Assembly (NCBI GenBank): GCA_041648455.1
Contig: JBAZOZ010000002.1
Span: 1,531-65,530 of the forward strand
Direction: 5' to 3'
Length of the DNA stretch: 64,000 bases
Source: Candidatus Pacearchaeota archaeon
GTDB taxonomy: Archaea; Nanobdellota; Nanobdellia; Pacearchaeales; GW2011-AR1
The notes under the pieces were generated by a model. It saw only the letters and a list, made by a program, of their open reading frames with translations. It was not told the DNA's origin and searched no databases. Shown in pieces: positions 1 to 62,496 of this stretch. A program made the position numbers and the translations under genes. Position 1 is the stretch's first letter. The number at the start of each line of letters is the position of its first letter.

Positions 1-1173
1 TGTTCTTTCATCTACTCTTGTTGGTGGTGGTCCGGAAAATCTATCGTGAATCTTTACAAGAGAAGGCAATTTATCGACAATGTTAACTCTTTCTACAGAT
101 TTTTGCGCGTTTATAATTAAAGATACTTTTAATGCAAACTCTCCACCCTTTGTTCTGACAAAATTGACTTTTTTCTTTAACACTAAATCTGTTGTAGAAA
201 TTCTTTTTACCACTAAAACTATAACTACAATAAAGATAATAATCAGCAAGGGGAAAAGCCAATTTGTTTTTACTTTTATAATCAGCGTCTCGCCGGGTTT
301 TATCGCGTTTTCCCAAGTATAGGAAACTGTCATGCCTTTTCTTTCCACAATATCTGGTTCTGGGCTAAAACTTGTGAAAAGCCTAGAGATAATATTCTTC
401 TTAATTTGTGTTTCTGATTTTTGTATAACATTTCCTTCATTTTTCTTTTCAATTATTTTTGTTGTTACGACCCAGCCATATTCTCTTTTTGTTGTTACAG
501 CAATATCTTTCTCGACGAAATTTATATCCCCATTAATTTCCGTATTTATTTCACCAACATTTATTTCACCTTTTAAAGTATAATATCCAGCGACTAACTG
601 CTTGAAATCTTCCTTGTTCAAATTTATATCAAACTCTTTTTTTTCATACGAAGATAAGGAAAATGATTTTTCGAGCTTAAAGAACGGCGAAGAAATTTTT
701 GCGTTGATTTTTTCAAAATTAAAATTCTTTCTATTCTTGATAAATATTTTTATAGAATTTGATTCGGGGTTTATGTCGTCGGCGCCGATTTCAAAAGCAT
801 CCTTTAAATTAATTATTTCAAAAGTTAATTTTTCTTCTTGGTCTTGAGAGTCATGTCCTTTAATGAAATATTGAAGAGTGTAATATCCTAAGTAATTTGA
901 AAGATCTCTCGGATAAACTTTGAATTTTATTTCTTTTGTTTCTCCTGATTTTATTTGAATCGGTTCTTTTGGAAACATATCAAATCCGAAAAGATTGTAA
1001 AATGTAAATTCGTCCGTTGCTCCTGCATTATATATTTTTAAATCGAAACTCGCTGGCTCATTTAAATCGCTAATCATAATCTCGTCTTGTGAAGTTTTTT
1101 CTATTTTAACATTGACTGCTAAAATGGAAGGCAAGAATAACAAAATTAATACAAGTAAATATAATTTTCTCAT
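1..1173 (-). CDS. Secreted/membrane protein, 3'-truncated by window edge (N-terminal signal peptide MRKLYLLVLILLFLPSILA, internal TM segment)
   Basis: Hand translation of the minus strand from ATG at 1173 gives an uninterrupted frame through position 1 (about 391 aa). The ORF track omits it because there is no stop inside the window. Plus-strand track ORFs 80..322, 332..583 and 602..847 overlap it and look spurious. Confidence 0.6.
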   Translation of the reverse strand, partial: MRKLYLLVLILLFLPSILAVNVKIEKTSQDEIMISDLNEPASFDLKIYNAGATDEFTFYNLFGFDMFPKEPIQIKSGETKEIKFKVYPRDLSNYLGYYTLQYFIKGHDSQDQEEKLTFEIINLKDAFEIGADDINPESNSIKIFIKNRKNFNFEKINAKISSPFFKLEKSFSLSSYEKKEFDINLNKEDFKQLVAGYYTLKGEINVGEINTEINGDINFVEKDIAVTTKREYGWVVTTKIIEKKNEGNVIQKSETQIKKNIISRLFTSFSPEPDIVERKGMTVSYTWENAIKPGETLIIKVKTNWLFPLLIIIFIVVIVLVVKRISTTDLVLKKKVNFVRTKGGEFALKVSLIINAQKSVERVNIVDKLPSLVKIHDRFSGPPPTRVDERT

Positions 1174-1821: not shown

Positions 1822-2090
1822 TAAAAGAAACCCGCTGGTTTCTTTTGAACTTCCTCGAAACACTGAACGGTGGTATCTCTCTTTGCCTCCGAGGATACCA
1901 CGAAAAAGAAACTAAATTTATTTTGAATCTCCTCGAAATGCTGAACGGTGGTATCTCTCTTTGCCTCCGAGGATACCACGAAAAAGAAACTAAATTTATT
2001 TTGAATCTCCTCGAAATGCTGAACGGTGGCATCTTTATTAGCCTCCGAGGATACCACGAAAAAGAAACCATTGGTAAAATACCTCTGGTG
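1822..2090 (+). repeat. Conserved hairpin (AAAAGAAACCCGCTGGTTTCTTTT, 1822..1848) followed by three tandem copies of a 78-nt unit (period starts at 1853, 1931, 2009)
   Basis: Direct read: cctcgaaa(c/t)(a/g)ctgaacggtggtatctctctttgcctccgaggataccacgaaaaagaaactaaatttattttgaatct occurs three times, the third copy degenerate. 78 is a multiple of 3, so three ORF-track entries (1794..2102, 1814..2071, 1821..2138) are repeat artefacts. Confidence 0.85.
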
Positions 2091-2183
2091 AAAATCGTGT
2101 AAAAGAAACCCGTTATTTAATTCAATTAAATTTATCATTTTCCCCGTTTATATAATAAAAAAAGATTGTTTAAATATTTATTG

Positions 2184-4862: not shown

Positions 4863-5001
4863 ATTAATAAAATGCGCGAGTGATTTAGAGATAAATTATT
4901 ATTTTAATAAAGTAAATAATCCCCAAACCACCATAAAAACAATTATTGCTATTGCGATCATCTTGATTATTTCTAATATGTTATCAACTGAAGATGATTT
5001 T

Positions 5002-5286
5002 TTAGCCATGTTCTATTTTGTACAACCTCTTTTCTATATTTATTAATCTATCCTGCATTTTAAACTTTTCTTCTATTTTTCTTTCAATCTTTTCCTCAAC
5101 TGATGAATCAATTTCTGAAAATTTAGCTAAAATTATCCATACAATTAAAATTATTAGTATCGCTATGAGAAAGATTAGAGAATAGATTATTAGAAAAAAT
5201 ATTGAATCTGTTGTCTTTTGTATAAGAGAAATAAATATACCGCCAATTAATCCGATTAAGATACCAATTATTTCTGTAATTCTCAT
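5002..5286 (-). CDS. Small membrane protein (two TM helices, coiled C-terminus)
   Basis: Hydrophobic N-terminal half (ILIGLIGGIFISL...LIFLIAILIILIVWIIL). Confidence 0.4.
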   Translation of the reverse strand: MRITEIIGILIGLIGGIFISLIQKTTDSIFFLIIYSLIFLIAILIILIVWIILAKFSEIDSSVEEKIERKIEEKFKMQDRLINIEKRLYKIEHG

Positions 5287-5354
5287 TAATTAATTTAATT
5301 TTTTTATCTCTTAAATATTGTTGTGATTAATAAGGATTTTTATAAGGATTATAT

Positions 5355-5480
5355 CTGCATCTTGGAGTTGTCAAGAACCCTCGGAATAAATCCCAGGGCG
5401 TGTCTCGGGTTCTTGAACACCCCAAAAATTGTTTTTGCTTTCTCACGAATTAAAACAGGGAGTTTTACGCAAAAAACAAT
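5355..5480 (+). repeat. About 125-nt structured element, copy 1 (inverted copy at 40852..40977); candidate ncRNA or MITE-like element
   Basis: gtcaagaaccctcggaataaatcccagggcgtgtctcgggttcttgaacaccccaaaaattgtttttgctttctcacgaattaaaacagggagttttacgcaaaaaacaatttttgctg. It has a 9-bp stem CAAGAACCC/GGGTTCTTG and a roughly 16-bp stem CAAAAATTGTTTTTGC/GCAAAAAACAATTTTTG. The second copy carries compensatory substitutions. Confidence 0.7.
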
Positions 5481-5681
5481 TTTTGCTGTATTAATAAATA
5501 TTAAATTAAGAAACATCATCCATCCAAGATAATAAATTACACCTTTTTTGTTCATGAAAAAATAAAGAAAAGTTAATAAAAATTAGTATAGTGCAATTAA
5601 AAGACATTATTAATTTCCAATCCTATCTTTTGATATATTCGAGAAAACGAAATAGCAGATAGGAATTATTTTGATCTCTTA

Positions 5682-10331: not shown

Positions 10332-10501
10332 TGCGCGATACGAGAATCGAACTCGTGTCTCAACGTTTTTGCTTTCTCGCGATTTCCGTCGGAGGCAATT
10401 TAAGAAATCGCCTTACAGCGTCGAAAAAGGAAGGTGTGTGAGAGGAAACCATAGGTTTCCTTCATTGGCAACGTTACGTTCTACCACTAAACCAATCGCG
10501 C
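10332..10501 (-). tRNA. tRNA-Gly(GCC) with a 98-nt intron at canonical position 37/38 (intron 10367..10464)
   Basis: Minus-strand read GCGCGAT-TG-GTTT-AGTGGTA-GAAC-G-TAACG-TTGCCA[intron]A-CGTTG-AGAC-ACGAG-TTCGATT-CTCGT-ATCGCGC-A. Acceptor 7/7, anticodon stem 5/5 (one G-U), T-stem perfect. The intron holds an 8-bp hairpin GCGATTTC..GAAATCGC. Confidence 0.6.
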
Positions 10502-10564
10502 ATAAATAATTCATAGAAAAATAATATTTAAAAGTTGCTGTGGCAACTTTTAACTCTTCAAGAT

Positions 10565-10682
10565 CAGAAAAACGATGCGCCATTGCATTTTTTAAGATGC
10601 GGTTTATTCGGCGCTCGTTTTTTGGATGCTCAAGATTCTAACCACACATCCAGTGTGTGGTTTTTGTCAAGAATCTTGACAT
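10565..10682 (+). repeat. Left copy of an approximately 118-bp inverted-repeat pair (partner 11655..11773)
   Basis: cagaaaaacgatgcgcc...gatgcggtttattcggcgctcgttttttggatgctcaagattctaaccacacatccagtgtgtggtttttgtcaagaatcttgacat. The reverse complement of 11655..11773 matches over the full length with a few substitutions. Internal hairpins AACCACACA/TGTGTGGTT and GTCAAGA/TCTTGAC. Confidence 0.8.
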
Positions 10683-11654: not shown

Positions 11655-11773
11655 GATGTCAAGATTCTTGACAAAACCACACACTTAAGTGTGTGTGGTT
11701 AGAATCTTGAACATCCAAAAAACGAGCGCCGAATAAACCGCATCTTTCAAGGTGCGGTGGCGCATCGTTTTTC
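11655..11773 (-). repeat. Right copy of the approximately 118-bp inverted-repeat pair
   Basis: atgtcaagattcttgacaaaaccacacacttaagtgtgtggttagaatcttgaacatccaaaaaacgagcgccgaataaaccgcatc...gcgcatcgtttttctg is the reverse complement of 10565..10682. Confidence 0.8.
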
Positions 11774-11807
11774 TGATTTATATATTTTAGTAAAAATGCT
11801 TTCGCTC

Positions 11808-11834
11808 GGTTGAACCTCGGACTACTCGGTGTAA
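11808..11834 (-). other. 27-nt duplicate of the tRNA-Val 3' portion (anticodon loop through T-loop), att-like fragment
   Basis: gttgaacctcggactactcggtgtaaac is identical to 12512..12538 inside tRNA-Val(TAC) and diverges on both sides. Confidence 0.6.
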
Positions 11835-11911
11835 ACTAATATATCATAAAGCATCTAAATAAAAAGAGCACTTTAAGATAGCTCGTTTAACACGAATGGT
11901 TTTTATTTAGT

Positions 11912-12497: not shown

Positions 12498-12568
12498 TGG
12501 CCCATCGAGGAGTTGAACCTCGGACTACTCGGTGTAAACGAGTCATTTTACCGCTAGACTAATAGGCC
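12498..12568 (-). tRNA. tRNA-Val(TAC)
   Basis: Minus-strand read GGCCTAT...ACTCG-TTTACAC-CGAGT-AGTC-CGAGG-TTCAACT-CCTCG-ATGGGCC-A. Acceptor 7/7 (one G-U), perfect anticodon and T stems, GG in D-loop, no encoded CCA. Confidence 0.7.
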
Positions 12569-21982: not shown

Positions 21983-22119
21983 TACGTGTAGCTCACCATT
22001 GAAGACAACCTACGGGTTTCTCTCACACACTCTCCCTCTCGTATCGGATGGGCGATTTCTTTCCAATGCCTCCGATAAAAATCGCATCGCCTTCGCTGCA
22101 CTACGTGTAGCTCACCATT
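21983..22119 (+). repeat. Insertion-like element: 18-nt direct repeats (tacgtgtagctcaccatt at 21983..22000 and 22102..22119) flanking a hairpin GCGATTTC...TGCCTCCGA...AAAATCGC (22052..22084)
   Basis: The direct repeat encodes the C-terminus plus stop (MVSYT*) of gene 22101..23513, which is duplicated. The hairpin is the same family as the tRNA-Gly intron hairpin. Confidence 0.6.
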
Positions 22120-23513
22120 CCATGAGATTTCTTGTAAATATCGAATAAATTAAATATTGTATCAGATGCCTTTTTTGCGGCTAATGGACGGACATGCTCT
22201 TTTTCAACCCAGTCGTCAACTTTTACTATTACATCTTTTTTGTTTTCTTTTTTATCTGATTTTTTTCCTTCTTTTTTGTCATAACCACCGATTAAAGCCA
22301 TGAAAGGATTTGAATTATCTTTTGATTTTTCTTTTTCCTTATCTTCTTTTTCTTCCAAAAATTCATTTATTTCTTCCTGCATTTGATCAAGACTTTCTGT
22401 TGTTGTGCCCTCAATTAAAGACAAAACATCTCCTAAATCGGATTTTTCCAATTCATAATTTAATTTTTTTAGTTCATCTTCGTTTAACGCGTAAGCCCGG
22501 AAAGTTATTTCAGATTTTCCTATAAAATTTCCCTGCTGTGGAACTGCTAAAAAAACAAAATCCACCAATACGCAAGAATAATATTTTCTTTTTCCCTTTA
22601 ATGATCTGGACTTGTAAAAATCCTGCGGCAAATCGCCTGCGAGCGCAGCGTCGTCAACTTTCATTTCTGATTTTCCTAGCAAGGTTAATTCAAGAATAGT
22701 TCTGTTAAATGCATTTACTGCGTAAGGATTTCTTCCTTGTTCTTTCATCTCGAGTTTTTGTGCTGCTAATAAATATGGTCTTACCCAACGAGAATAAAGT
22801 TTTACATTATTAACCTGGCTTCTTAAATAAGTTCTTTCAATTTCGTATCTTTTCCTCAATTCTTTTTCAGATTGCGTGAGCCATAAATTAAATTCAAGAA
22901 TTCTCGGTTTCAGAATTCTTTTTACTCTATCATTCAAATCAATTTTATCTACATCTTTCTCATCTTTTACTGCAAGAAATGCGTCTCTTAGCGTCTGGAA
23001 TCCTAATTGCCCGGTTGTCATTGCATGAATGCTACCCTGGCTTCTCTGTAAATCAACTTTGTCAAGCCAGATTTGTTTTAAAGAAAGCTTTGCGGCTTCC
23101 GAAGTATTTTCATTTTTTGATTTCAAATCGTCGTAAACTTGCAGTCTTATTTTAAATTCTTTCAAATCGTAAATTATATTTAAAATGCTTCGTGTTAAAA
23201 CTCCGACGCTCTGCATCATCTTTGAAGCTTCTTCTTGCATTCTCGCCATCTTCATTCCAGATTCTGAAAAGTGCGGGCCTCCAGGCATTGAAGAAAAATT
23301 ATCAATAAGCTTTTCGGTTGATAATCCAAAATCATTCATTAAGTCAATTATAAAATAATAAATCGGCTCGAGGGTTTCTGCGTATGACTCGTAAGATAAG
23401 GAGTGTTCGGACTCGGGCACAGAATCAATTAAACCTTTTTTCTTTTTTTCTATTCTTTTTTTGTAATAAGGAGAAATTTCTTCGATTATGCCGTGAATTG
23501 TTTTTACTTCCAT
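22101..23513 (-). CDS. Hypothetical protein (470 aa)
   Basis: ORF track; no recognisable motif. Confidence 0.45.
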   Translation of the reverse strand: MEVKTIHGIIEEISPYYKKRIEKKKKGLIDSVPESEHSLSYESYAETLEPIYYFIIDLMNDFGLSTEKLIDNFSSMPGGPHFSESGMKMARMQEEASKMMQSVGVLTRSILNIIYDLKEFKIRLQVYDDLKSKNENTSEAAKLSLKQIWLDKVDLQRSQGSIHAMTTGQLGFQTLRDAFLAVKDEKDVDKIDLNDRVKRILKPRILEFNLWLTQSEKELRKRYEIERTYLRSQVNNVKLYSRWVRPYLLAAQKLEMKEQGRNPYAVNAFNRTILELTLLGKSEMKVDDAALAGDLPQDFYKSRSLKGKRKYYSCVLVDFVFLAVPQQGNFIGKSEITFRAYALNEDELKKLNYELEKSDLGDVLSLIEGTTTESLDQMQEEINEFLEEKEDKEKEKSKDNSNPFMALIGGYDKKEGKKSDKKENKKDVIVKVDDWVEKEHVRPLAAKKASDTIFNLFDIYKKSHGMVSYT

Positions 23514-24452: not shown

Positions 24453-24709
24453 TTGATGAATATGAAAATACAAAAATTTCTAATTTTTGTCCTTCAAAAA
24501 CAAGAAGTTTTAGAAGAAATAGGAAATTTTTTACCTTTTACAGAAATTAGAAATTTCTGTCCTACGGAAAATAGGAAAAACAAAAAAGTTTTTCATCTCT
24601 CCAAATCAAGAAGATTTGAAGATAAGAAATTTTCCGTCCCGTTCAAAACGGGAGATTTTGAAGGTTACAAAACAGGAAGTTTTGAAAGTAAAAATAGGAA
24701 ATTTGAAAA
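24453..24709 (+). repeat. AGGAA-core module array upstream of the GluRS-like gene; the first 80 nt are a conserved block shared with 39489.. and 62373..
   Basis: atgaaaatacaaaaatttctaatttttgtccttcaaaaacaagaagttttagaagaaataggaaattttttacctttta...aacaggaagttttgaaagtaaaaataggaaatttgaaaaATG. Confidence 0.8.
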
Positions 24710-25906
24710 ATGAAAAATCTCGATAAAAAAATTCGTGCTTACGCTTTGAAGAATGCAATTGCTTATGAAGGAAAGGCACGACAGGGTGCGGTTATTTCTG
24801 GATTGTTTGCTGAGGGTTTGAAGAAAGAAGATGTGAAGAAAATTATTAAAGATGTCTCAAAAATTGTTAATGAAGTAAACAAACTTTCTCTGGAAGAACA
24901 GGAAAAAGAATTTGAAAAATTAAAAAAAGAGACTCACGAAAGAGAGCATAGAGAAGGTTTGGAAGAATTGCCGAATGCAAATAAGGGAGTTGTTATGAGA
25001 TTCAGGCCATCTCCTTCCGGACCATTACATATTGGGCACATAATTTCAAATATAGTTAATTCTCTTTACGTTAAAAAATATGGCGGAAAATTTTATGTAA
25101 TTATCGACGATACAAACCCAGAAAATGTTTTGAAGGATTCTTATAAAAAAATCAAGGAAGATTGCGACTGGGTTTTTGGAAATGTCACAAAATATCTTAA
25201 TTCTTCGGATAGAATGGTATTGTATTACAGGTATGCAGAAGATTTAATTAATAAAAAATTTGCTTATGTCTGCACTTGTTCTGCTGAAAGATTTAGAAAG
25301 TTTTCTGAATTTCAAGAAGATTGTCCGTGCAGAAATAATGAACTGAAAGAAAATATTTATAGATGGAAAAAGATGTTTGATGAATATAAAGAAGGCGAAG
25401 CAGTTTTGAGATTTAAAACTCAAGAAGGAATGAAACATCCAAATCCTGCGATGCGAGATTTTCCTCTTGCAAGAATAAATCTGACAGAGCATCCCTTGCA
25501 AAAGAAAAAATATCGAGTTTGGCCGTTGATGAATCTTGCCGTCGCTGTCGATGATATTGAATTGAAGACCACGCATATTATTAGAGGAAAGGACCACAGA
25601 GATAATGCAGAGAGGCAGAAAATGATTTTTGAAGTTTTTGGAAAGAAATATCCGTGGAGTTTTTTTATGGGAAGAATAAAATTTAAAGATTTAGTTTTGT
25701 CAAAGAGAAAGATTACGCAGGCAATCGAATCAGGTGAGTTTTCTGGAGTCGAGGATGAAAGACTTCCAACTATTGCATCTTTAAGAAAAAGAAAATACAA
25801 TATGAAAGTTTTCGAGAGATTTGCAGAACAGAGAGGACTTACAGAAGTGGACAAAGTTGTTGATTCAAAAGAATTTTTCTTGATTTTGGATAGTTTTAAC
25901 AAGTAA
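24710..25906 (+). CDS. gltX: Archaeal/eukaryal-type GluRS-like catalytic domain with N-terminal GatB/YqeY-like helical domain; canonical C-terminal anticodon-binding domain absent (398 aa)
   Basis: RFRPSPSGPLHIGH (HIGH motif) and VLSKRK (KMSKS variant); only about 65 aa follow the KMSKS. The N-terminal 90 aa (IRAYALKNAIAYEGKARQGAVISGLFAEG) are YqeY-like. Confidence 0.7.
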   Translation: MKNLDKKIRAYALKNAIAYEGKARQGAVISGLFAEGLKKEDVKKIIKDVSKIVNEVNKLSLEEQEKEFEKLKKETHEREHREGLEELPNANKGVVMRFRPSPSGPLHIGHIISNIVNSLYVKKYGGKFYVIIDDTNPENVLKDSYKKIKEDCDWVFGNVTKYLNSSDRMVLYYRYAEDLINKKFAYVCTCSAERFRKFSEFQEDCPCRNNELKENIYRWKKMFDEYKEGEAVLRFKTQEGMKHPNPAMRDFPLARINLTEHPLQKKKYRVWPLMNLAVAVDDIELKTTHIIRGKDHRDNAERQKMIFEVFGKKYPWSFFMGRIKFKDLVLSKRKITQAIESGEFSGVEDERLPTIASLRKRKYNMKVFERFAEQRGLTEVDKVVDSKEFFLILDSFNK

Positions 25907-27035: not shown

Positions 27036-28310
27036 TTATAATTTTTGCGGTAAATTTTTGATTAAATAAACTTCATCGCCTTTTCGAACTAAAAGAATTT
27101 TGATTCCAACTTCCTGTCCTTTATTTGCGGTTTTAATTGGCTTGTTTTTTATTTCCATAGTTTCTATCTTTGAATTCAAGATTCCGGTTGTGTTTCCAAT
27201 TACGGAAATTTTATCTCCAATTTTAACTGAAGAAGATAATTTTATTGCGGCTACATTTATTTTTGGATAGTAATGCAGGACTTTTCCTACGAAATGTTTT
27301 TTTTCTGTTGCTTCGGAATGTTCAATTCTTGCAAAATCGTCTGGCGTCGGTAAACCAAGGTAAAATCCAGAGGAGAATCCTTTATTGTAAACTTTTTTTA
27401 ATTCTTCTAGAGATTCCCGAATTTCTCTTTCAGAAAGTTTTTTGTCGAGGGCTTTTCTATAAATTCTAATAACTGTTTCAACATATCTTGGGTCACGATT
27501 TCTTCCTTCAATTTTGAAAGATTTTATTCCTGCTTTTTTCATTTCTTCAATAAAAGGCAAGGTGCATAAATCTTTTGCTGACATTATCTTATCGTTTTCT
27601 AATTCTAATTCATAGCCTTCTTGCTTGTCTTTTACAATGTAGCCTCTTCTGCATGGATGCAAACACTCCCCGCGATTTGCAGATTTATTGAATAAGAATT
27701 GAGAAGTGAAACATCTTCCGGAAATTGAGACGCACATTGCTCCGTGTGCAAAACATTCTATGTCAATTATTTTTGAGATTTTCTTAATTTGTTTTAGATT
27801 TAATTCTCTTGCTAAGATAATTCTTTTTGCTCCGAGTTTTTTGTAGAATCTCGCTGTTTCTGAATTTGCAACAGATGCTTGAGTTGAAATAAAGAAAGGA
27901 ATTTTGTATTTTTTGCAGAGTTGAACAACAGCCAAATCCCAGCAAATCACAGCATCGACTTTTCCTTTAATTTCTTTAATTATTTTCTCAATTTTCTCCA
28001 ATTCTTCATCGTAGATTATTGTGTTCAGAGTCAAATACATTTTTACTTTTCTTTTGTCTTTTCCATTGCTGCAGATTTTTCTTATTTCATCTAAATCATT
28101 CAATGTGAAATTTTTTGCATTTGCCCGCATTGAGAAATCTTGCAGTCCGAAATAAACTGCGTCAGCTCCGGCATTCACCGCTGCAATTAAATTTGGAAAA
28201 CTTCCTGCTGGTGCGAGCAATTCAAAACCTCGCGGTTTTGTATCCCGACGCGAATTCTTTTCTTTGCCTCCGATAGAATTCTTCACAGCAAATTCGTATT
28301 TGGATTTCAT
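27036..28310 (-). CDS. Peptidase U32 family protein
   Basis: ELLAPAGS, AGADAVYFG, ...DAVI..D and CFAHGAMC motifs. Confidence 0.8.
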   Translation of the reverse strand: MKSKYEFAVKNSIGGKEKNSRRDTKPRGFELLAPAGSFPNLIAAVNAGADAVYFGLQDFSMRANAKNFTLNDLDEIRKICSNGKDKRKVKMYLTLNTIIYDEELEKIEKIIKEIKGKVDAVICWDLAVVQLCKKYKIPFFISTQASVANSETARFYKKLGAKRIILARELNLKQIKKISKIIDIECFAHGAMCVSISGRCFTSQFLFNKSANRGECLHPCRRGYIVKDKQEGYELELENDKIMSAKDLCTLPFIEEMKKAGIKSFKIEGRNRDPRYVETVIRIYRKALDKKLSEREIRESLEELKKVYNKGFSSGFYLGLPTPDDFARIEHSEATEKKHFVGKVLHYYPKINVAAIKLSSSVKIGDKISVIGNTTGILNSKIETMEIKNKPIKTANKGQEVGIKILLVRKGDEVYLIKNLPQKL

Positions 28311-28753: not shown

Positions 28754-29022
28754 TCTATTTTCTAAGATTTTTTATGACAGCTAATTATCGGCATCACGAG
28801 TAGAGAATTTGATTTCTTTAGCTGTGCGTTTTCTGAAGACAATATTTTTATACCATATTCAACTGAATTAAATGATAGATGCTTTGCGATTTCCAGCGGA
28901 GGCAATTTAAGAAATCGTTTTCCGCGTCGAGAAGGAAGTTGATTGCCTCAAGAATGAAAATTCTTGATGGTGTTCAGGAATCTTTGATTCCTGACATAAA
29001 GAAACCGCAGGTATCTTACAAT

Positions 29023-29094
29023 GGCGATTGTAGTTTAACGGTAGAATGTGTGACTGTGGCTCGCAAGACGAGGGTTCGACTCCCTCCTTTCGCC
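29023..29094 (+). tRNA. tRNA-His(GTG) with encoded G-1 and C73
   Basis: g-GCGATTG-TA-GTTT-AACGGTA-GAAT-G-TGTGA-CTGTGGC-TCGCA-AGAC-GAGGG-TTCGACT-CCCTC-CTTTCGC-C. Anticodon and T stems pair; the acceptor has two U-U mismatches (5-68, 6-67). Confidence 0.55.
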
Positions 29095-29305
29095 CTTTCA
29101 GTCGTGAGTCGAATAAAAAAGGAGAAACAAAGATGAAAAAAATAAAATATTCAATTGCAAAATCTGGGCTGTGCCTTTGCACAGACGGAATTAAAGATTT
29201 TGCAAATATAGAAAATACAGAAATCGAAGATTTCTGTCCTTACAAAACAGGAAGTTTTGAAAGTAGGAAATTTTCTATCTCATTAAAATTCAGGAGAATT
29301 TTAAG

Positions 29306-37027: not shown

Positions 37028-37215
37028 TAAAAGAACCCCGCTGGTTTCCTCAGAAATTGAAAATTTCTGGGACATTCAAAATTTGCATTTTGAAGTTTTT
37101 GAACTTCCTCAAATTGTGGAACGGCGATATGAAAAACTTTATTGTTTTTCATCCTTCCGAAACAAGAAGTTTCGAAAGTTTTCAGAAATGCCTCCGACGA
37201 AAATTGCATAAGAAA
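37028..37215 (+). repeat. Second locus of the hairpin-plus-78-nt-unit element family, abutting the spt4 start codon
   Basis: ttaaaagaaccccgctggtttcc...tgaacttcctcaaattgtggaacggcgatatg...gcctccgacgaaaattgcataagaaaca parallels 1822..1940. Confidence 0.65.
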
Positions 37216-40632: not shown

Positions 40633-40703
40633 GGGTCTGTAGTTCATCGTTAGAATATCTGCCTCCAGAGCAGAAGAGGGGGGTTAAATTCCCTCCAGGC
40701 CCA
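40633..40703 (+). tRNA. Putative tRNA-Trp(CCA) with non-canonical D-loop (no GG) and T-loop (TTAAATT)
   Basis: GGGTCTG-TA-GTTC-ATCGTTA-GAAT-A-TCTGC-CTCCAGA-GCAGA-AGAG-GGGGG-TTAAATT-CCCTC-CAGGCCC-A. All four stems pair with G-U allowed. Missing G18G19 and C56 lowers confidence. Confidence 0.35.
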
Positions 40704-40830
40704 TTAAAAAGAACCCGCTGGTTCTTTTTAGAAATCTCCTCTAATGCTGAACGACGATTTCTAAATGCCTCCGGTGAAATCGTATAAAAGAACCCAAATA
40801 TTTTTCCTCTGGTAGAATCGCATAAAAGAT
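40704..40830 (+). repeat. Third, degenerate locus of the hairpin-plus-78-nt-unit element, abutting the tRNA 3' end
   Basis: ttaaaaagaacccgctggttctttttagaaatctcctctaatgctgaacgacgatttctaaatgcctccggtgaaatcg. Confidence 0.6.
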
Positions 40831-40851
40831 TATAATTATTTTATATACTAA

Positions 40852-40977
40852 TACAGCAAAAATTGTTTTTTGCGTAAACTCCCCGTTTTAACTCGTGAGA
40901 AAGCGAAAACAATTTTTGGGGTGTTCAAGAACCTGAGACACGCCCCGGAATTTATTCCGAGGGTTCTTGACATACTA
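40852..40977 (-). repeat. About 125-nt structured element, copy 2 (inverted relative to 5355..5480)
   Basis: Reverse complement reads gtcaagaaccctcggaataaattccggggcgtgtctcaggttcttgaacaccccaaaaattgttttcgctttctcacgagttaaaacggggagtttacgcaaaaaacaatttttgctgta. Confidence 0.7.
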
Positions 40978-45035: not shown

Positions 45036-45402
45036 ATAAAAACAACCTCGCGTTTTCCGCGAGAATCATAGATTCTCGGGGTCTGAAAAATCCATTTTGG
45101 ATTTTTCTGATTTTGCATTTTCCCTTTCGTGTCGGAAGGGCGATTTTTTTCAACTCGAGCCCAGGTTTGCTTCAAGTTTGCCTTCGAAATAAATGCAAAC
45201 CTAAACTCTCGACTCGAGCATTGGAAAGCCGTTATGGATTAAAAATATTTGTCGCATTCCAATACTCTCGACCTCCTATGAAAATCGCATAGCAATAAAT
45301 CTTATTAAAAAATAGTTATTTAATTAGTTATAAATCTGATGTTCGTGGGTTTATTAATTTATTGGAGGAAAAGTATTTAATATAATCTCCCGAATAAAAT
45401 TT
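45036..45402. promoter_or_regulatory. Highly structured 367-bp divergent intergenic region (multiple perfect palindromes)
   Basis: CTCGCG-ttttc-CGCGAG; CAGAAAAATCCA-tttt-TGGATTTTTCTG (12-bp perfect); AGGTTTGC...GCAAACCT; repeated CTCGAG. Confidence 0.5.
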
Positions 45403-56914: not shown

Positions 56915-57121
56915 AAACAAAATAGTTTTCTATCCCTAAAAATTGAGAAAGTCTTAAGGAAACAGGAAATTTTTAAGATGAAAAAAATAACAAATTTTTT
57001 ACCTTTTCAAATCAGGAAAAATTTAAGATGCGGAAAACAGGAATTTTCCGTCTCGTTAAAAACAGGAAATTTTTAAGATGAAAAAAATAACAAATTTTTT
57101 ACCTTTTCAAATCAGGAAAAT
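56915..57121 (+). repeat. AGGAA-core module array containing a 101-nt direct duplication (56957..57017 and 57058..57118), upstream of 57122
   Basis: aaacaggaaatttttaagatgaaaaaaataacaaattttttaccttttcaaatcaggaaaa occurs twice. Confidence 0.8.
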
Positions 57122-57574
57122 TTGAAAATGAACAAAAAAATAACGATTATAATATTAGTAATTTTATTAACTGTGTTTGTTGGAGCATATTTAATAAAAC
57201 AAAAAGATCCAAGAATCCCCATTACTATTTATAAAACCCAAAGTTGCGGATGTTGCGAAGGTTTTATATCTGAATTAACTAAAGGTGGATTTGATGTTAA
57301 AATGAATGTTGAGGATAATATAGATATAAAAGGAAAATATAACATTCCAGAAGAAATGCGAAGTTGTCATACTTCTTTTGTTAAGGGTTATTTTGTAGAA
57401 GGACATGTTCCTCTTGAAGCTATAAATAAATTAATTGAAGAATCTCCTGAAATTGATGGGATTGCATTACCTGGAATGCCTTCTGGTTCTTTGGGAATGC
57501 CAGGAATAAAAGATGGACGACTTAAAATATATTCTATCACCAATGGAACAGCTTCTATTTTTATGGAAATATGA
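57122..57574 (+). CDS. CopG/DUF411-like metal-binding protein (membrane anchored)
   Basis: N-terminal TM; CGCCEGF and CH motifs. Confidence 0.55.
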   Translation: MKMNKKITIIILVILLTVFVGAYLIKQKDPRIPITIYKTQSCGCCEGFISELTKGGFDVKMNVEDNIDIKGKYNIPEEMRSCHTSFVKGYFVEGHVPLEAINKLIEESPEIDGIALPGMPSGSLGMPGIKDGRLKIYSITNGTASIFMEI

Positions 57575-62131: not shown

Positions 62132-62368
62132 ATGGAAAATAAATTTTTAATTTTTGGTGTTGTTTCTTTAGTTGTCCTGTTAAGTATTGCGGTTGTTATA
62201 AAATTAAATAGAACTGGAGATGCAATCAACAACGAAGATTTAAACAAATATAGGTCTGAGAAAATTCCGCAGGAGTGCAGACTTTCACAAGGAGAAAATC
62301 TCCAATCATGGAAAGAACATTTGGGACATCATCAGGATACACTTTACTGTCTAGATTATTATAAATGA
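62132..62368 (+). CDS. Small membrane protein (78 aa)
   Basis: N-terminal TM. Confidence 0.35.
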   Translation: MENKFLIFGVVSLVVLLSIAVVIKLNRTGDAINNEDLNKYRSEKIPQECRLSQGENLQSWKEHLGHHQDTLYCLDYYK

Positions 62369-62496
62369 AAATACAAAAATTTCTAATTTTTGTCCTTCAA
62401 AAACAAGAAGTTTTAGAAGAAATAAGAAATTTTTTGTCTTTTACAAATAGGAAATTTGAAAAATAAAAATGGAAAAATTGAAAGGAGGTAAACAAC

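Follow-up and report, generated by a model that had tools for sequence, protein, structure and literature searches.

Archaeal tRNA introns are removed by the splicing endonuclease and lie classically between nucleotides 37 and 38, and the strict recognition motif consists of a helix, a 3-nt bulge, a 4-bp helix, a second 3-nt bulge, and another helix. Paralogous or "transposed" introns occur in Thermoproteales, intron gain has been linked to mobile elements, and the gain of archaeal tRNA introns is a long-standing question. In bacteria, hairpin-forming repeats of about 100 nt occur between genes in high copy number, such as REP/BIME sequences, the Correia elements of Neisseria, and the palindromic elements of Rickettsia. 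Here we describe a repeat unit of about 80-105 bases with two hairpins, of which about ten copies were found in a 64-kb window (the whole stretch of archaeal DNA that was analysed); these copies were intergenic, inside one gene, or present as a tRNA intron. The unit resembles the bacterial repeats in its apparent promoters and terminators, its in-frame and RNA-gene copies, its variation among close relatives, and its nesting, but it is archaeal, has neither terminal inverted repeats nor a TA or fixed duplication, and conserves the loop instead of the stem. Unlike them, it also appears to follow an archaeal promoter logic (TATA at -29, leaderless genes) and to be tolerated in tRNA genes through protein-dependent splicing. 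With known archaeal introns it shares the 37/38 position, an outer helix made by the anticodon stem, the 3-nt bulges, the 4-bp helix with the anticodon, and the occurrence of related introns across tRNA genes. It differs in that the other members of the family are intergenic, tandem, or coding and for the most part lie opposite to the intron copy, in that the intron interior has been exchanged from one subtype to another among sister genomes, and in that there is no inner helix, which leaves a relaxed motif.

Among the products encoded in the window are a thermosome, RpoE, Spt4, ribosomal proteins, and aminoacyl-tRNA synthetases, and the public record of a 470-aa protein encoded in it is labelled "Candidatus Pacearchaeota archaeon". 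Genes in the window were mostly leaderless, and TATA-like hexamers clustered at -29 to -27 from the ATG of 62 window genes. Relatives (L129 to L190 below) were reached through their proteins and include L189 (GCA_964365295.1), L132 (GCA_964368215.1), L129 and L188 (ERZ1292629), and a sequence of ERZ27249422; the 424-aa neighbour of tRNA-Gly gave no close relatives as a homologue query, and an exact look-up of Spt4 gave no match. Copies were located by motif and profile (nhmmer) searches with hand-defined arms of the first hairpin (H1), and these were used instead of a covariance model because the MAFFT alignments of H1 were not structure-consistent. Pattern scans of genome and metagenome collections, for which the patterns were short and GC-rich, returned chance matches only (GC-rich bacteria, a transporter gene), as did those of viral contigs. 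In Rfam, no family matched the module at gathering or relaxed thresholds, even at E = 10.

The original prediction described a hairpin occurring three times, in the intron of tRNA-Gly, upstream of tRNA-His, and at a gene end at 22 kb. All three hairpins were present, each within 1 nt of its predicted position. Their extent and number had been underestimated: the hairpins are parts of homologous modules of 85-140 nt, the similarity covers about 100 nt and goes beyond the hairpin alone, and further copies were found at 37.1, 40.7, 28.25, and 45.1 kb (Table 1). The loop word GCCTCCGA occurred seven times in the window against 0.34 expected and, as had been claimed, was also located in the loops of three 78-nt tandem units. 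The module profile recovered the copies at E = 1e-10 to 1e-20, with F45 a weak match at E about 0.05. The similarity thus exceeds AT-rich chance.

The forward orientation was defined as the strand on which the loop reads TCGGAGGC. In this orientation, the unit consists of a T-rich leader, H1, the spacer CGTTCAGCATTTCGAGGAG, a TATA-like TTYAAAAAG box, the palindrome H2 (GAAACC-n3-4-GGTTTC), and the end CTTTTA, often followed by ATGG. H1 has the invariant loop YCGGAGGCA on stems that vary among copies yet stay paired. The 78-nt tandem units are B-type, whereas an A-type variant, represented by the tRNA-Gly intron (A1) and the 22-kb copy (A2), has GTGTGTGAGAG in place of the B-type TATA-like box and no T-tracts. 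RNAalifold recovered both H1 and H2, with compensatory changes at 10 of the 17 pairs. Among 14 H1 copies with 10 distinct 5' arms, 106 of 112 pairs were Watson-Crick, six were G.T in the forward orientation, and none was A.C, although only three internal wobbles carry weight because the arms were defined with G.T allowed. The invariant loop, the covarying stems, and the wobbles in one orientation point to selection on RNA or single-strand structure, and a purely selfish model fits them poorly.

Table 1 Coordinates of the modules and neighbouring features in the 64-kb window.
Feature	Position	Strand	Remarks
tRNA-Gly(GCC)	10332..10501	-	99-nt intron 10367-10465 at position 37/38 = A1, antisense
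A1	10367-10465	antisense to tRNA	tRNA-Gly intron; H1 10379-10411 (8 bp, all Watson-Crick)
A2	22001..22085	-	A-type, 22-kb copy
A2 parts	H1 22052-22085; GTGTGTGAGAG 22020-30; H2 ~22005-22021	-	H1 of 9 bp, one G.T; 3' end CTTCA
A3	28882..29022	+	H1 28886-28918 (8 bp, one G.T); extra ~65-nt insert
Array B	1822..2100	-	three 78-nt tandem units (1839-2068) and one degenerate
C37	37028..37210	-	between rpoE and spt4; nested 60-nt element; ends TTTTA-ATG at spt4 start
D40 and degenerate unit	40705..40825	-	adjoins 3' end of tRNA-Trp (40633-40703, +), opposite orientation
E28	28221..28281	-	short (H1 and H2); in frame, in variable N-terminal extension of Peptidase_U32 gene 27036-28310
F45	45036..45290	-	degraded; ends at ATG of Lhr helicase gene; nested elements interrupt H1 loop
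18-nt repeat TACGTGTAGCTCACCATT, gene-distal copy	21983..22000		minus-strand reading A-ATG-GTG-AGC-TAC-ACG-TA, then A giving TAA
Native 3' flank (linker) of 470-aa gene	22086..22101	-	16 nt; same flank at the L138 empty site
18-nt repeat, gene-proximal copy	22102..22119		true gene end: M-V-S-Y-T codons and TA of the TAG stop
470-aa hypothetical protein, Pacearchaeota/Nanoarchaeota	22101..23513	-	no Pfam domain; conserved C-terminus HGM(V/P)SYT
Second repeat family	1165-1273, 24644-24717, 56960-57138		upstream of ATGs 14437, 17323(-), 24710, 39633, 57128, 57713, 59272, 60615

All copies beside or within protein genes were co-directional with those genes, and most copies were opposite in orientation to the tRNA-Gly intron copy. 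The subtypes did not follow orthology: A2 resembles A1 of the same window through the common GTGTGTGAGAG, and the orthologous copies elsewhere are B-type. Furthermore, the copy at the array B locus (B locus) of L189 and C37 of the window have a nested 60-nt element in common, and the H1 stem arms of the L188 tRNA-Gly intron are those of the third array unit of the window. The 60-nt element (CAGAAATTGAAAATTTCTGGGACATTCAAAATTTGCATTTTGAAG...) was nested in modules at three different loci (window 37051-37110; L189 2445-2504 and 174-221). Other nested elements, starting with CGAGAGT and ending with CTCGAGT, were located in H1 loops just past GGAGG (window ~45150-45270, L189 ~2530-2590), and their position suggests that the H1 loop itself is an insertion target. 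Two more repeat pairs were also observed, at 5366-5500 and 40842-40976 and at 24462-24556 and 62365-62457, with about 93% identity over 136 and 95 nt; one member adjoins D40.

Orthologous empty sites, proposed as a check in the original prediction, were found for four different insertion sites. The profile search detected modules in L129, L130, L132, L188, and L189, none in L133, L138, and L190 (about 47 kb), and a single match in L135 (a further 21 kb), which was weak and decayed. The 137-nt module upstream of tRNA-His in the window has 20 nt as its counterpart in L135, an empty site. The 3' end of A3 (...CTTACAATG) adjoins G-1/+1 of tRNA-His (29024-29095), and its ATAAAGAA stands 27 nt before the tRNA, the same spacing as that of ATAAATTA in L135. 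This tRNA-His and that of L135 (4778-4848), a relative of 64% identity, both have adjacent U.U mismatches (5-68 and 6-67) in the acceptor stem. L135 also contains a decayed piece of the module spacer (CCGTTCAGCGCTTCAAGGAA) at 5249-5390, in the N-terminal extension of the Peptidase_U32 gene, from which the family may predate its current expansion.

The B locus is empty in L190 (thermosome 88% identical), where it reads CBS stop, TATTTAAAC, 22 nt, and ATG, and it is occupied in the window and in L189 (90%), where the native TATA box and ATG are kept and the array directly follows. In the window, the insertion point of the array immediately follows the native ATG (2138-2136) of gene 1318-1821; a restart is available at the module-terminal ATG (1821-1819), 28 nt past TTCAAAAG of the last array unit. 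The 78-nt units are 94% identical along their full length, and the array is shorter by exactly one unit in a strain of 99.8% identity to the window. In the internal units, a TATA-like box lies about 26 nt before the next H1, with a T5 tract just before H1. A complete module was also found between the CBS and thermosome genes of L189, where the window has unrelated sequence. On the minus strand, 1821-2138 forms a 105-codon open frame running from the native ATG through the array and ending in TAATG, which overlaps the real gene start; one array unit is 26 codons, and gene callers will annotate this frame as a protein.

Taken together, these findings are probably best explained by a lineage-specific DNA repeat that is amplified in tandem and tolerated by means of its own terminator and leaderless promoter or, in tRNA genes, by means of splicing. 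It would behave as selfish DNA through local tandem amplification, sequence exchange between copies, and mutual nesting, with the harmless copies persisting. Before protein genes, the oligo-T tracts would end incoming transcription and the TATA box would restart a leaderless downstream gene, as the geometry and the B locus indicate; insertions there would be harmless because the unit terminates and then re-initiates transcription. Indeed, the TATA-like box of the module lies 28-29 nt before the ATG that it adjoins, which is the spacing of the leaderless promoters of this genome, but C37, F45, A1, and A2 have no TATA box at -29, which counts against a promoter role. Spread as DNA, rather than as spliced RNA, is indicated because most copies are opposite to the tRNA-Gly intron and co-directional with protein genes. 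A broader reading, which we put forward only tentatively, is that of an active family that may become, replace, or derive from tRNA introns and elsewhere may serve as a portable terminator, leaderless promoter, and start codon. A second, unrelated repeat family of ~25-nt units (AAACAGGAAATTTTGAAA), often tandem, ends at start codons and is preceded by TTTTTACCTTT, which replaces the normal TATA box (Table 1).

The most serious alternative is a host function for H1 as RNA, which would be compatible with the reading as selfish DNA. H1 would then present the Shine-Dalgarno-like GGAGG of its loop in 3' or 5' UTRs, or in a small RNA made from each 78-nt unit, to a protein or the small ribosomal subunit, and the copies in tRNA introns would be secondary. 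The invariant loop and covarying stems would be expected from such a function, as would the fact that all six non-Watson-Crick pairs of H1 are G.U in the forward orientation, the uniform direction of the gene-associated copies, and the TATA-like box and T5 tract before each following H1 in the array; moreover, operon-internal genes of the window genome use GGAGG. However, presence differs among close relatives and the copy number even between strains of 99.8% identity, the downstream genes are unrelated, nested elements break H1 loops, one copy is coding and in frame, tRNA introns contain both orientations, and Rfam has no counterpart. We therefore consider a host RNA unlikely as the explanation of the family.

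The 22-kb copy had been read in the original prediction as an inserted element flanked by a target-site duplication. The 18-nt repeats are indeed perfect and consist of the last five codons (MVSYT) of the 470-aa gene and two bases of its stop codon, but their arrangement does not support that reading as it was stated. The gene-proximal copy is the true gene end, because this C-terminus is kept in all orthologues, and it is separated from the module by the native flank, which L138 also keeps (TATAGTGAAGGCG) after the stop codon of its empty site. The same layout was found in L129, L130/131, and L132, whose 470-aa orthologues are 88, 83, and 76% identical: the gene end is followed by a short flank, by H1 on another covarying stem, then by a B-type spacer and H2, and finally by a second ATG-GTG/CCG-AGY-TAY-ACN-TAR. 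In L129 the second gene-end copy is followed by a native-type flank and the start of another H1, and in L132 another H2 and a third gene-end copy are added. Neither module nor duplicate was found in L133, L135, and L138 (64-66% identity), in which the next gene follows within 25-37 nt. Module and duplicate accordingly arose together in one sub-clade, since both are present in the relatives of 76-88% identity and both are absent at 64-66%.

At the level of sequence, the 22-kb locus behaves like a short decaying tandem array, the unit of which comprises gene end, flank, and module. The 18-nt repeat would be the start of a truncated second tandem unit whose period, by coincidence, takes in the final 18 nt of the gene; it thus appears to be the partial second unit of a local tandem duplication and neither a simple target-site duplication nor a transposase footprint. 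In four genomes, nearly all differences between the distal and the proximal gene-end copies are at third codon positions, and every distal copy closes with a stop codon. This pattern looks like constraint and may be due to concerted evolution in the mini-array or to pairing with the GTGYAGC flank. GCTGCAC (22095-22101) can pair with GTGTAGC of either repeat copy to form a hairpin spanning the stop codon, and such GCTACAC/GTGYAGC pairing may contribute because the pairing persists as G.U after C-to-T changes. The 22-kb copy is not within any tRNA or Rfam RNA, and the copy that had been singled out seems to be ordinary repetitive DNA, a bystander in the 3' flank of the gene.

The tRNA-Gly gene scored 50.2 bits with the Rfam tRNA model, with a single insertion in the anticodon loop, and its exons rejoin to a 71-nt tRNA. 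The hairpin is inside the intron as predicted, although the intron measures 99 nt, not 98. Three genomes have an intron at this 37/38 site, of 63 nt in L190, 99 nt in the window, and 120 nt in L188; that of L190 has no H1 and retains a homologous H2 and flanks, and that of L188 consists of a B-type and a degenerate unit. All three are antisense to the forward orientation and have the common end ...AAAGCAAAA followed by A. The junctions were scanned with a script for a helix, a 3-nt bulge, a 4-bp helix, and a 3-nt bulge. In the window, the tRNA-Gly junction forms the outer helix UAACG/CGUUG, the bulge AAA, the central helix UUGC/GCAA, the second bulge CAA, and an inner helix of 1 bp (relaxed motif). 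The same helix-bulge motif was found in L188 and L190 despite their differing interiors and anticodon stem, which was changed by compensation in L190. In the tRNA sense, the L188 intron includes a T6 tract, which would be expected to impede transcription.

A second tRNA gene with an intron of this family, tRNA-Tyr(GUA) of L189 (~100-445, minus strand), was missed by Rfam at the gathering threshold. Its intron is composite and about 195 nt long; it includes a B-type module in forward orientation, and its end, ACAAAA, fits the anticodon GUA (U35), as GCAAAA in tRNA-Gly fits GCC (C35). Just upstream of this tRNA, an H1-deleted A-type module lies between 15-nt repeats of the tRNA 5' end (ACCCCGCATAGCTCA), which end with TAGCTCA. 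Judged from these sequences, the tRNA-Gly intron is a true member of the dispersed repeat family, and the family is genuinely intron-capable in both orientations, with splicing predicted from the junctions. Survival at 37/38 would be due to the ends of the module, which form the 4-bp helix and the 3-nt bulge needed by the splicing endonuclease; copies in tRNA genes would last only at sites from which this enzyme can excise them, and the A-type would be a version purged of T-tracts for the tRNA context. A box C/D small RNA in the intron was rejected, as there was no UGAUGA (box C) and no Rfam small-RNA match above noise.

Several other duplications were observed near tRNA genes. Two copies of a 27-nt stretch of tRNA-Val(TAC), about 700 nt from each other (11809-11835, 12515-12541), flank an HD-domain gene whose ATG is inside the tRNA, an arrangement that looks like the attachment-site repeat of an integrated element. 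In L188 (3088-3245), 150 nt separate the thermosome gene from tRNA-Gly, the 3' end of which is repeated over 15 nt (AAATGCGCGATACGA), and in the window a ATGCGCGA remnant follows the thermosome gene (4872-4881), 5.5 kb from tRNA-Gly. Because of this remnant and the layout of L188, the region from 4.9 to 10.3 kb may be an insertion at tRNA-Gly. An inverted repeat of about 120 nt with 89% identity (10563-10682 and 11656-11777) surrounds the Sua5/YrdC gene.

That one copy is a tRNA intron raised the further possibility, suggested in the original prediction, of a mobile bulge-helix-bulge intron. In one form of this reading, the excised circular RNA of the tRNA-Gly intron would reverse-splice into other RNAs and then be copied into DNA, and the 22-kb copy would be an insertion into a tRNA-like antisense transcript (plus strand GTAGCTCA, D-arm-like). 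The occurrence of the family as introns at 37/38, in tRNA-Gly (three genomes) and in tRNA-Tyr (one genome), with 3' ends matched to the anticodon, would fit this mechanism, as would the TAGCTCA-ending repeats around the A-type copy of L189; moreover, L190 showed no dispersed copies and yet has an intron of the family, one that lacks H1, and the intron could therefore predate the expansion. At the repeat copies, the plus strand of the 22-kb locus can fold into an outer helix of 6 bp (UACGUG/UACGUG), the bulge CAC, and a 4-bp helix (UAGC/GCUG). However, the strict form is absent there, with no inner helix, and the relaxed motif is at chance level, since 89% of shuffles also gave one (mean 2.8 per shuffle); cleavage at this motif would also fail to regenerate one single copy of the repeat. 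Bulge-helix-bulge geometry is thus unsupported at 22 kb. Besides the opposite orientation of most copies and the two orientations within introns, tandem arrays and an in-frame coding copy would be unexpected from reverse splicing, and no reverse transcriptase was seen in the window or related loci. We regard a mobile intron as improbable; what stands of the earlier view is a small, dispersed, evidently spreading non-autonomous element with one copy serving as a tRNA intron, whereas its mobility by bulge-helix-bulge at 22 kb does not.

A classical non-autonomous transposon or integrase substrate, for which the 18-nt and 13-15-nt repeats would be insertion duplications made by an enzyme encoded elsewhere, appears equally doubtful. 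Direct repeats do surround several copies (18 nt at 22 kb, 13 nt at array B, 15 nt at the tRNA-Tyr of L189), and partial tRNA duplications of integrase type are present, namely the tRNA-Val fragment and the tRNA-Gly end in L188. Such duplications are typical of integrase action at tRNA genes (PMC3293823), and the repeats of 15-27 nt from gene ends around inserts, with the gene kept intact, agree with that description. Unlike those insertions, the 22-kb insert is only about 100 nt long and duplicates the end of a protein gene, and no integrase was found. The repeats vary in length, with other copies having none or 13-15 nt; at 22 kb the left repeat copy does not adjoin the module; and the 13-nt repeat of array B (CGGGTTTCTTTTA) belongs to the unit itself. 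There were no terminal inverted repeats, the ends of 22001-22101 being non-complementary and the internal hairpins the only inverted repeats, and no transposase, integrase, or other mobilising gene was detected in the 64-kb window or the fetched related loci. A duplication-generating insertion mechanism is nevertheless possible, because two other loci have 15-nt tRNA-end repeats around small inserts.

The remaining candidates were rejected: a guide RNA with a scaffold and a guide matching the 18-nt repeat (what follows each copy is simply the local gene or tRNA, and the neighbourhood contains no nuclease gene), a CRISPR or tandem guide array (the 78-nt units have no variable spacers), a transcription-factor regulon (downstream genes are unrelated and some copies point into tRNAs antisense), a miniature inverted-repeat transposon (no terminal inverted repeats and no abutting duplication of fixed length), and a REP/BIME sequence (stems vary and the loop is conserved, and no cognate tyrosine transposase gene was seen).

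If the broader, tentative reading of an active family that may become or replace tRNA introns is true, the invariant GGAGG loop would be the handle for some recognition factor. The family also illustrates how a repeat can spread in a compact genome of leaderless genes without killing them, since it brings a terminator, a TATA box, and a start codon. For annotation, the modules matter in that they mask tRNA genes, as with tRNA-Gly and tRNA-Tyr, which standard scans overlooked, and give rise to spurious open reading frames. The family illustrates that dispersed repeats can be a source of tRNA introns: a tRNA-Gly intron belonging to a dispersed DNA repeat family, together with empty and occupied sites and differing versions in sister genomes, offers a concrete route for intron gain and turnover. 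On the broader reading, it would provide a natural system in which the gain and turnover of archaeal tRNA introns by DNA repeats, and not by mobility at the RNA level, could be watched.
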